Shown here one piece after another: positions 33,001-36,328 of a stretch of DNA of 36,328 nt. Source of the stretch: Candidatus Geohabitans tengchongensis. Lineage in GTDB: Bacteria > Sysuimicrobiota > Sysuimicrobiia > Sysuimicrobiales > Humicultoraceae. The DNA lies in NCBI GenBank assembly GCA_031459625.1, contig JAVKIH010000001.1, forward strand, positions 242,173 through 278,500, in the 5' to 3' direction. A program made the position numbers. Numbering within the stretch: position 1 is the stretch's first letter; every line of letters starts with the position of its first letter.

Positions 33001-36000
33001 GGTGGCCTACCGGCCGGTGAGCGGGATCAGCGGCAACCTCACCAGCGTGGGGTCCGACACGCTCAACAACCTGATGACGCTGTGGGCGGAGGGGTTCCGC
33101 CGCTTCTACCCCAACGTGCAGATTCAGATCGAGGGGAAGGGGAGCAGTACGGCTCCGCCGGCGCTGATCGCCGGCACCGCCCAGCTCGGCCCCATGTCCC
33201 GGCCGATGAAGGCCGGCGAGGTGGACGCTTTCGAGAAGAAGTACGGGTACAAGCCGACGGCCGTCCGGGTCGCCGTGGACGCACTGGCGGTCTTCGTCCA
33301 CAAGGACAACCCCATCCGGTGCCTGACCCTGGAACAGGTGGACGCCATCTTCTCGAAGACGCGCCGGGCGGGGCACCGGGAGGACATCAGGACCTGGGGG
33401 CAGCTCGGCCTGACCGGAGAGTGGGCCAACCGACCGATCAGCCTCTATGGCCGCAACTCCGCCTCGGGAACCTACGGCTACTTCAAGGAGCACGTCCTGC
33501 GGAACGGTGACTTCAAAGACGAGGTGAAGGAGCAGCCCGGGTCCGCCGCTGTGGTGCAGGGCGTGACCGTCGACCGCTACGCCATCGGGTACAGTGGCAT
33601 CGGCTATGCCACGGCAGGGGTGCGGGCTGTTCCGCTGGCCGAGCAGGCCGGCGGGCCCTGCGTGGAGGCCAACCAGCAGAACGCTTACGCCGGCACCTAC
33701 CCGCTGGCACGGTTCCTCTTCATTTACGTGAACAAGCCGCCCACCCGTGGCGTTGACCCGCTGGTTCGAGAGTTCCTTCGGTTCGTCCTGTCACGGCAGG
33801 GACAGGAGATCGTGGTCAAGGACGGCTACTTCCCCGTCTCCGCGCCGATTGCGCTGGAAGAACTCGCCAAGGTGACGGCCGGGGGCGGGAGCTAGCGTCG
33901 CGGTGGCGCTCCCGCAGCTGAAGCCGTTGCCTGCCGGCGGGCCCTCCGCCGCGGGGGCCCGTCCCGCCCCCCCGGCGGCTGCGCCCGCCTGGCGTCTGCG
34001 GGCGGACCGGCTGGCCGCGGGAGTCGTCCGCCTCGGCGGTCTGGCCGTCGTCCTCTCCATCCTGGCCATCCTCGCCGTCATCCTGGTGGAAGTCTTGCCC
34101 CTGGCGCGTCCGGCCCGGGCTCGGGCGGTCGGAACGGTCCCGGCGGTGGGGGTGGGCCGGCCGCTGGTGGCGGACGTGGACGAGCACCGCCAGGTCGCGG
34201 TCGTCGTCGGCGACGGCGGGTTGGGCGTCGTGCCCATCGGCCCCGAGGCCCGCCGGCCGGCAGACCTGCCGCTTTGGGACGTGCCCGTGGCCGGGGCGGC
34301 GCGGGCGGGGCGAACGCTCCTCCTCGGGCTGTCCGACGGACGGGCGCTGGGCGTGGAGGTGGCGTACGACGTCGTGTTCTCGGCCGACGGCCGGCGGACC
34401 GTCACGCCGCGGGTGTCGGGGGGAGCACCGCTGGTGGTGGATCCCTCGGGCCGCTCCCTGGCCCGGGTGGCCTATGCGCGGACACGCGCGGGGCCGGTGG
34501 TGGCAGCGCAGACCGGGCCGCGGGAGGTCACCCTGGTGCGCGTCCGGGAACGCCGGGCCCTCGTGGGAGCATCGACCCGCGAGGTGGTGCGCGACCGGCT
34601 GACCCTGCGGATCGCGGGGGAGGTCACCGCCCTCGCCCTGGACGGGCGGGGTGACGCCCTCTTCGTCGGGACTTCGGTGGGCCAGCTCCTGGCTCTGGCG
34701 CCGGCCGGCCCACGGCCTCGGGTCCTGGCGGTGGCCCAGGTCAGCCGCCAGGGGACGGCCATCACCGTGCTGGGCTTCCTCCTGGGGGACCGCACGGTGA
34801 TCACAGGAGACGCCGCGGGGCGGGTGGCCTCGTGGCAGCTCCTCGGCCAGACCACCGGGCGGCTGAGGCTGCAGCGCATCCACGAGTTCGCGCCGCTGGC
34901 CGCACCGGTGACGGCCTTCGCCGCGTCGCACCGGGACAAAGGGTTCCTGGTGGGGGACGCCGACGGCCGGGTGCACCTGGGTTACGGGACGACGGGGGAA
35001 ACCCGGCTGCGGGTGCGGGCGGTCCGCGGAGGGCTGCGCGCCCTGGCGTGGGCGCCGAAAGGGGACGGCTTCCTCGCCATCGACGCCGCCGGTCGGCTGA
35101 GCCACTGGGCGCTCGAGGTGGGGCATCCCGAGGCCACGCGGCACACGCTCTTCGGCAGGGTCTGGTACGAAGGCTACGAGGCGCCGGCCTACGTGTGGCA
35201 GTCCACCGGTGGCACCGATGACTTCGAGCCCAAGCTCAGCCTGACGCCGCTGGCCTTCGGGACGCTCAAGGGCACCGCCTATGCCCTGCTCGTCGCCGTG
35301 CCGGTGGCCCTGGTGGGTGCGCTGTACGCGGCGCAGTTCATGCACCCGACGCTCCGGGCGCTGGTGAAGCCCGTCGTGGAGATCATGGCCGGGCTGCCGA
35401 GCGTGGTGCTGGGCTTCCTGGCCGGCCTGTGGCTGGCTCCGCGGGTAGAGCGGGTGGTCCCCGGCATCATCCTCATGCCGCCCGCGATGGCCGCGGCGAT
35501 CCTGGCCGCGTTCCTGCTCTTCCGCCTGGTGCCCGCCCCGGTCCGGGGCCGGGTGCGCCCGGGCATGGAGCTGGTCGTGCTGGTCCCCGCCGTCCTCCTG
35601 GGAGGGTGGCTGGCGCTGCGGCTGGGCGGCCTGGTCGAGGCGGCCCTCCTCGACGGGGACTTCCGCACCTGGCTGCCGCGTGCGGTCGGGCTCACCTATG
35701 ACCAGCGCAACGCCCTGGTGGTGGGGCTGGCCATGGGCTTCGCCGTCATCCCCATCGTCTTCACCATCGCCGAGGACGCGCTGGCCAACGTCCCGCCGCA
35801 TCTGGCGGCCGGCGCGCTGGCCCTGGGCGCCACTCGCTGGCAGACCGCGCTCCGGGTCGTCCTGCCGACGGCCAGCCCCGGCATGTTCTCCGCGGTGATG
35901 GTGGGCTTCGGGCGCGCCGTAGGGGAGACGATGATCGTCCTCATGGCCACCGGGAACACGCCGGTCATGGACTGGTCGCCCTTCAGCGGCTTCCGGGCGC

Positions 36001-36328
36001 TCTCGGCGAACGTCGCGGTGGAGCTGCCCGAAGCGCCCTACGGAGGGACCCTGTACCGCGTCCTGTTCCTGGCGGCCCTGCTGCTCTTCGTCACCACGTT
36101 CCTGGTGAACACCGCGGCCGAGGTGGTGCGCCTGCGGCTGCGGCGACGGTATCAGGCGCTGTGAGGGGCGGCGCAGCGGCGGTGCGGCGGGAGGGCTCCG
36201 GCGGGCTGTGGCGCAGCGGCGACCTCTTCGTCTGGCTCAGCGGCGGCGCGCTGGCCCTGGCCTTGCTCATGGTAGCCGGCCTCGTCGGGCTGGTGGCGGC
36301 CCACGGGCTCGCGTACTTCTGGCCGCGC

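Follow-up and report, generated by a model that had tools for sequence, protein, structure and literature searches.

A seven-bladed propeller predicted in the periplasmic P1 loop of a long phosphate permease PstC and its possible role in docking PstS

The phosphate permease PstC of Candidatus Geohabitans tengchongensis is 753 aa long, and the locus raises the questions of where the additional sequence is inserted, on which side of the membrane it lies, and what it could do there. The window analyzed, i.e., the whole stretch of 36,328 nucleotides (contig JAVKIH010000001.1, positions 242,173 to 278,500), enters near its end an operon with the order regulator-pstS-pstC-pstA-pstB-phoU, as the genome-wide survey's note had described. 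The first operon gene (31676..32644, forward strand, as for all features below) encodes a DUF47 (PhoU_div) domain fused to an OmpR-type winged-helix domain and is native to the lineage. It is followed by pstS of the TIGR02136 / P. aeruginosa type (32876..33895; 64% to P. aeruginosa PstS), by pstC of the long, P. aeruginosa-type form with eight predicted membrane helices (33903..36164), and by the 5' end of a long-form pstA (36161..36328), which encodes TM1, overlaps the pstC stop codon and continues past the window. The open reading frame 33903-36164 agrees with the reported length of 753 aa and is the sole PstC of the host genome (94% complete).

Judged by its sequence, the operon encodes an importer of inorganic phosphate that belongs to the type I ABC transporters and, among these, to the P. 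aeruginosa kind. As shown by homology, PstS would bind phosphate outside, PstC and PstA would form the path with a conserved Arg/Glu site, and PstB would drive the import by alternating access. We infer ATP-driven phosphate uptake by the long PstC from its residues, its context, and the P. aeruginosa orthologue. For the additional PstC domain, a periplasmic cradle docking or retaining PstS is proposed below, a reading to which we give about an even chance.

The Pfam family BPD_transp_1 matched PstC at residues 470-746 only, confirming that the domain is confined to the C-terminal part. The TIGR02138 (PstC) model scored 192.7 with the protein and 201.1 in the six-frame search, against a curated cut-off of 196.45, and its match was split by the inserts. 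The TM4-TM6 core with the EAA loop (35715..36152) contains R671, E675, T676, and M677, which correspond to R237, E241, T242, and M243 of E. coli PstC and are invariant in 132/132 rows of the PstC alignment. According to the E. coli structure paper, R237/E241 belong to the phosphate site and T242/M243 form the gate (PMC12976172). The R220/E224 pair of E. coli PstA corresponds to R394/E398, kept in 90-100% of the PstA rows. The E. coli PstSCAB structures (9k3s, 9k3x, 9k3y) thus share with the long form the TM1-TM6 core, the P1 loop, the EAA loop, the phosphate site, and the gate. In contrast, E. coli PstC has no propeller and comprises about 300 aa with 6 membrane helices, versus 753 aa and 8 in the long form, and E. 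coli PstA is without the insert of the long PstA. A sequence search of the PDB with PstC gave matches to the core alone.

The region before the core had been described as starting with an extra N-terminal helix. Profile alignment and propeller-less relatives show that this was wrong: residues 26-68 (33978..34106) form the ordinary first helix of PstC (TM1), with the N terminus inside. A TM1 profile built from E. coli PstC and 11 short PstC sequences (n = 12; 11 of 20 loci passed the filter) aligned with residues 25-72 of the long PstC over 37 gap-free columns (hhalign probability 87%, E 3.9e-6) and reached at most 9% with the seven other membrane segments. D35 and P66 are the counterparts of D16 and P47 in E. 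coli PstC. Residues 427-447 align with the E. coli P1 loop, and the P1-TM2 region matches at 97% (hhalign), with W58 on W432. In three natural propeller-less relatives, the helix homologous to TM1 continues straight to TM2. A bare TM1 profile of the long PstC found E. coli TM1 only with non-significant E values (0.089-0.47), and the short-family TM1 profile chose TM1 in just 68 of 132 single long PstC sequences; the identity of TM1 was settled by the profile-profile comparison and the natural propeller deletions. Given the homology of both TM1 and P1-TM2, residues 69-428 are therefore an insertion in the P1 loop.

The insertion carries the propeller (residues 72-405; 34116..35117) and a conserved family-specific linker (residues 406-428; 35118..35186), with H408-P409-E410 and with Y422-E423 invariant, the length of which is fixed in 132/132 rows. 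The P1 loop proper (residues 429-447; 35187..35243), homologous to residues 55-72 of E. coli PstC, follows. The earlier description also overlooked two additional membrane helices (residues 525-582; 35475..35648) between TM3 and TM4, with a basic loop inside and no counterpart in E. coli PstC; on top of the ordinary helices, this hairpin therefore gives the long PstC eight membrane helices. Counts of Lys plus Arg in the 132 rows were 4.2 before and 1.4 after TM1, 1.0 before and 2.8 after TM2, 0.7 after TM3, 3.4 in the next loop, and 4.8 at the C terminus. These positive-inside counts agree with the homology of TM1 and the P1 loop and place the N terminus inside and the propeller outside, so that the extracytoplasmic position that the survey had assumed is now backed by both. 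Since an Omp85 gene is present in the host genome, the outside is probably a periplasm.

The AlphaFold2 model of PstC (53 rows; pLDDT 81.4, pTM 0.74) and its fold matches bear out the seven-bladed WD40-like propeller at residues 72-405. Seven blades of four strands are predicted, with strand 72-79 closing blade 7 in a velcro closure, and long beta-hairpins are modelled on blades 2, 3, and 5. All rows listed by Foldseek were WD40-type propeller proteins (best E 2.6e-12; TMt 0.73 for 5yzv), as had been noticed before, and exhaustive alignment of the propeller model with VIA-align gave Z values of 26-30. WDR61 (3ow8), Ski8 (1sq9), and the bacterial PkwA domain (5yzv) share the fold (Z 28-30, with 283-315 residues superposed at an rmsd of 3.2-4.0 A). 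They differ from the PstC domain in sequence (9-16% identity), and the latter is periplasmic, fused to a permease, equipped with long beta-hairpins, and conserved on the opposite face. A Pfam search revealed no family dedicated to the PstC propeller; on this PstC it gave propeller hints below threshold and no PF00400 match, and PF00400 was matched by 13 of 52 homologous propeller domains (E ≤ 0.01). Together with public models, the precomputed propeller tags mentioned in the survey mean that the fold is already visible in databases.

No part of PstC is less conserved than the propeller (conservation 0.36, versus 0.73 for the linker/P1 region), which counts against the cradle. Conserved propeller residues include R165, L293-G295, S342-R344-K346, T363, and P385. 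Among the loop residues other than Gly and Pro, seven conserved ones are located on the a-b/c-d loops (D93, E94, L293, S342, R344, K346, and T363) and one on the opposite face (D145), a distribution in favor of the cradle. The mean conservation was 0.39 for the a-b/c-d loops and 0.31 for the opposite face (p 0.02, with positions that are not independent). Both chain ends of the propeller exit toward the membrane on the a-b/c-d side, and the conserved residues are thus on the membrane-facing side, opposite to the usual WD40 binding face. The faces were assigned by strand order and the convention by which the faces of WD40 propellers are named, rather than from coordinates, which weakens this argument for the cradle. 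The net charge of the propeller varied from -27 to +15 in the 132 rows (median -5), the present copy being the extreme at +15, and no conserved basic, polar, or acidic set was found on the outward face in these rows.

A comparable insert occurs in PstA. The 484 aa previously assigned to this protein are a downstream piece; the true frame starts on the pstC stop codon and comprises 577 codons, of which 34 are unread (N), and the PstA proteins of relatives have 545-560 aa. In the model, the P1 loop of PstA contains a periplasmic insert of about 205 residues, in which a beta domain is interrupted by a long hairpin of two helices, 90-138 (49 residues) and 145-173 in the numbering of the modelled piece (local pLDDT 86-96). 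According to models and alignments, both inserts are placed alike, outside in the P1 loop following TM1. Conserved motifs of the PstA insert occur both within the beta domain and along a hairpin stripe (E115, N123, E127, R130, and L131), which lies at a constant distance from the hairpin base in 51 of 52 rows; the hairpin tip is of 23 to 52 residues and unconserved. For comparison, periplasmic adaptors (membrane fusion proteins) combine a barrel-sandwich domain with a helical hairpin, the tip of which is conserved. The PstA insert belongs to no Pfam family and matched only unnamed Atlas clusters, and the fold search returned generic hairpin matches only (Z ≤ 9.4), which hardly covered the beta domain.

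The third element is the N-terminal segment of mature PstS (32984..33028), which contains an invariant Tyr and accompanies the propeller form of PstC. PstS of E. coli belongs to another family, matched by 0 of 81 long loci at E ≤ 1e-5. Of 251 evenly sampled Pseudomonadota genomes, 23 encode a long PstC (25 propeller-profile matches, minus three weak non-PstC matches, plus one more diverged copy). In 22 of the 251 genomes, the match of PstS to its profile begins at position ≤18, and all 22 have a long PstC, which supports the cradle; thus, 22 of the 23 long-PstC genomes have the segment, versus 0 of 39 other PstS-positive genomes of the sample. The pairing holds even with pstS distant from pstC (G184, G294, and G072). 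The exception, G310, has a long PstC with diverged blades 1-3 and a best PstS without the segment and speaks against the cradle. A stricter pattern for the segment was found in 34 of 52 rows, although the Tyr is invariant. Among the best 80 of at least 600 genome loci with a long PstC, the propeller and the PstA insert occur jointly in 76, the remaining four being cut by contig ends, and neither was detected in 20 short-PstC loci; this joint occurrence is also in favor of the cradle.

The elements also disappear together. Three genomes (G308, G144, and G192) contain a derived operon, the PstC of which belongs to the long subfamily and has kept the extra membrane hairpin but lost the propeller and the P1 motif, so that about ten residues link TM1 to TM2. 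Their PstS is without the segment, and the PstA hairpin is absent in two and shorter in one, in agreement with the cradle. In a quick tree, the three form one clade within the long PstC subfamily, and the co-loss is therefore one event. It occurred in a fast-evolving operon alongside an ordinary pst operon, each of the three genomes also carrying an ordinary short PstC, and this weighs against the cradle. Since the carriers are related and the genes linked, the co-occurrence counts are suggestive, short of statistical proof. Newly seen here are that the propeller appears to travel with the PstA insert and the PstS N-terminal segment, the joint loss in this clade, and the membrane-facing position of the conserved propeller residues, together with the weak, PstS-dependent score of the complex prediction below.

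A complex of the propeller with linker (residues 69-428), the PstA insert, and PstS was predicted, with the ordinary docking loops left out. The score was 0.36 (0.26, 0.36, and 0.42), with at least 69% contact agreement between runs and partner pLDDT of at least 79; the best of three controls, one of them with PstS replaced, reached 0.00. In the calibration, 116 of 157 solved complexes attained the score mark, as did 2 of 215 mismatches; at scores ≤ 0.60, just 18 of the 157 solved complexes did so, along with both mismatches. The tool rates the range in which 0.36 lies as more often wrong than right. The three-chain job differs from the calibration, gave no interface output, and included the linker 406-428 in its PstC piece, all of which counts against reading the score as support for the cradle. 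The value of 0.00 for the propeller and the PstA insert with PstS replaced is neither support nor counter-evidence for that pair. Weak as this PstS-dependent support is, the complex score shifts the balance slightly toward a contact with PstS.

The P1 loops of E. coli reach into the PstS cleft, docking of PstS is transient and was captured only by cross-linking, and PstS is unbound in the resting state (PMC12976172). Domains grafted at this very point would be placed to prolong docking. The PstC propeller and the PstA insert may thus flank the landing site of PstS, and both inserts with the PstS N-terminal segment would form the cradle, in which PstS docks or is kept from one transport cycle to the next. 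The propeller would act via its membrane-facing side, with blades 5-7, the hairpins of blades 2/3, and the linker 406-428, rather than via its outward face. Such retention would resemble that of the maltose-binding protein by the P2 domain of MalF in MalFGK2. The P2 domain is a folded insert on the periplasmic side of a type I importer, where it holds the binding protein; its fold and its loop are other than those of the PstC propeller; MalF was matched via the membrane core only, and the likeness is a working analogy, not homology. The docking platform for PstS proposed in the survey has therefore modest support from the P1-loop position, the co-occurrence and co-loss of the PstS segment, and the weak complex score.

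The conserved residues on the side of the chain ends would equally suit a purely structural scaffold, in which the propeller rests against the membrane core and the PstA insert and stiffens or shields the complex without contact to PstS. The conserved stripe at a fixed distance from the PstA hairpin base and the co-occurrence of the two inserts throughout also agree with a scaffold; it leaves the coming and going of the PstS segment with the propeller unexplained, and we regard it as rather unlikely. An improbable alternative is a signalling or recruiting platform for another periplasmic partner, such as a chemoreceptor or sensor, which would tune the Pho regulon or phosphate taxis and not uptake. 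WD40 propellers are generally interaction hubs. In P. aeruginosa, the chemoreceptor CtpL likewise relies on PstS (PMC4926252), and genetics identify the pstC product as a Pho-repressing Pst subunit, an insertion in pstC leading to constitutive PhoB (PMC13492115). However, the outward face, which would be free for a partner, is variable, the recurrent operon neighbours are only phoB/phoR-type regulators, porins, ppk, ppx, and DUF47/Pit genes, and the family spans many phyla with differing signalling sets.

A bridge to the outer membrane, in which the PstA hairpin and the propeller would extend to a phosphate porin and conduct phosphate through the periplasm, is quite improbable. The 49-residue first helix of the hairpin and the Omp85 gene of the host would allow for it, the named carriers among the best 80 of at least 600 loci are all diderm by our own classification, and Porin_O_P-type genes adjoin about 10 of the 80 loci; yet Porin_O_P was not found in the host genome (94% complete), and the hairpin tip is variable in length and sequence. 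That the propeller captures or hydrolyses polyphosphate, phytate, or DNA is unlikely, and we give it hardly any chance. Polyanions can be bound by periplasmic propellers of bacteria, and one of these, the DNA-binding YncE of E. coli (3vgz), is among the fold matches (Z 26.7), where it is tied with many others. The propeller of this copy is basic, but its charge is the extreme of the 132 rows, and the conserved basic residues R165, R344, and K346 are on the membrane side. The variable outward face and the charge spread speak against polyanion capture there, and the phosphate-bearing polymer that the survey had considered is left unsupported. Beta-propeller phytases have six blades and a conserved calcium/phosphate site, whereas the PstC domain has seven blades and no conserved acidic set on its outward face, in accordance with the dissimilarity noted earlier. 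Returning to the cradle, a stronger form of it is doubtful, though possible: the propeller, the PstA hairpin, and the PstS segment may be one co-evolved machine holding PstS captive throughout the cycle. If so, high-affinity phosphate importers would fall into two mechanical classes, the second of which would prevail in one large Pseudomonadota order (66/121 genomes) and be used by P. aeruginosa. The dock-and-release model of E. coli would be inapplicable to this second class, and captivity would set how PstS is shared among uptake, Pho signalling, and chemotaxis.

The closest described system is that of P. aeruginosa. Its PstC (WP_003123734.1; PA5368 in PAO1) is colinear with the present one (42% over 750 aa, E 6e-165; 28%, E 3e-11, from the propeller alone) and differs from it by sequence divergence alone. 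The long PstA (558 aa), the PstS type (that of PA5369), and the gene order are shared, and the profiles of this analysis matched the P. aeruginosa PstA insert with 239 bits and PstS with 549 bits. As annotated, P. aeruginosa PstC has 677 aa, begins within the propeller, and lacks TM1; the open frame comprises 761 aa. Nikata et al. (1996) reportedly noted long hydrophilic domains in both P. aeruginosa Pst permeases, and the crystal structure of P. aeruginosa PstS is said to have led to the description of an N-terminal loop. COG4590 and COG4985 presumably cover the long PstC/PstA proteins. The transporter type is known, and its add-ons seem undescribed. The literature search, which covered subscription journals in small part and left supplements aside, retrieved no paper describing how the PstC/PstA inserts fold or what they do; the word "propeller" is absent from both PstSCAB cryo-EM papers listed, and the main text of the E. 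coli structure paper, taken without its supplementary alignments, leaves Pseudomonas unmentioned (PMC12976172). Papers on phosphate sensing in P. aeruginosa borrow the E. coli mechanism, yet the permeases of P. aeruginosa have some 550 additional periplasmic residues in the loops to which PstS docks. Now that the insert has a predicted fold, a mapped position, a conserved face, and a naturally deleted counterpart, what was a size oddity becomes a matter of testable mutants, and the truncated P. aeruginosa PstC annotation is corrected.

The long form bears on phosphate uptake across many environmental phyla. The hundreds of relatives reported before were recovered with the propeller as query (residues 60-421), which gave 407 clusters at 50% identity (E ≤ 1e-10). 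As a widespread distinct subclass, the long form stands; as a new one it does not, being the Pst system of P. aeruginosa. Nor is it limited to phyla of metagenome-assembled genomes, as had been suggested: besides P. aeruginosa, it was found in Shewanella, Photobacterium, Pseudoalteromonas, Halomonas, and Methylomonas, and the best 80 of at least 600 genome loci belong to many phyla, including cultured Shewanella, Photobacterium, Pseudoalteromonas, Hahella, and Methylomonas. In the Pseudomonadota order of G308, the 121 genomes include 66 with the long frame, 1 with a frameshifted one, and 2 propeller-less.

In the window's own phylum, PstC was detected in 45 of 61 genomes, with 42 short and 4 long forms, one genome having both. 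That E. coli and 42 of these 45 relatives possess a short PstC weighs against the cradle. In a quick tree, the four long PstC of the phylum cluster together (support 90), near those of Rokubacteria/Nitrospinota (99). The short pst operons of relatives are headed by the DUF47-regulator in at least 8 of 20 cases and contain E. coli-type PstS in 18 of 20. The grouping of the long copies and the presence of the regulator ahead of short operons fit a lateral import that would have replaced the pst genes in the host lineage.

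In the derived pst operons of G308, G144, and G192 (loci L159–L161), PstC has neither the WD40-like propeller nor the P1 motif, PstS has no N-terminal segment, and the periplasmic hairpin of PstA is gone or shorter, while the phosphate-site residues, pstB, and phoU are retained. Each of these genomes additionally encodes an ordinary short PstC at another place. In a single case, genome G383, a frame change in propeller blade 7 splits the long pstC (L164, 3993–6280), which represents either a sequencing error or a broken gene. Long and short Pst systems were found in one genome in G021 (contigs C3 and C68) and G062 (C10 and C15), which are natural hosts for comparing the two forms.

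The first gene of the window's operon (31676–32644, plus strand) encodes a fusion of DUF47 (PhoU_div) and an OmpR-type winged-helix DNA-binding domain, from which a receiver domain is absent; the product is possibly a one-component phosphate regulator. This gene heads long as well as short pst operons in the window's phylum. The pstA gene with its insert extends beyond the window (4834–6567 of L001, the window's own locus). No known fold match was found for the beta domain of the insert, folded together with the rest of the modelled piece; in this domain the polar motifs N37-R38-D39 and E66-R67-E69 (numbering of the modelled piece) are strongly conserved.

A 450-aa protein encoded 5' of pstS in another locus (L044, 3401–4753) had no Pfam match and ends in a C-terminal aromatic residue. 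It is likely an outer-membrane barrel, and its cluster was present in 7 of the best 80 of at least 600 loci.

The PstC annotated in the P. aeruginosa record NZ_CP070468.1 (L012; start region 1474–1800) comprises 677 aa and starts at 1768, within the propeller. In-frame ATGs at 1516–1540, preceded by a Pho-box-like tandem repeat (1474–1491), restore TM1, giving 761 aa from 1516. The record is labelled as a plasmid, yet it contains genes that look chromosomal.
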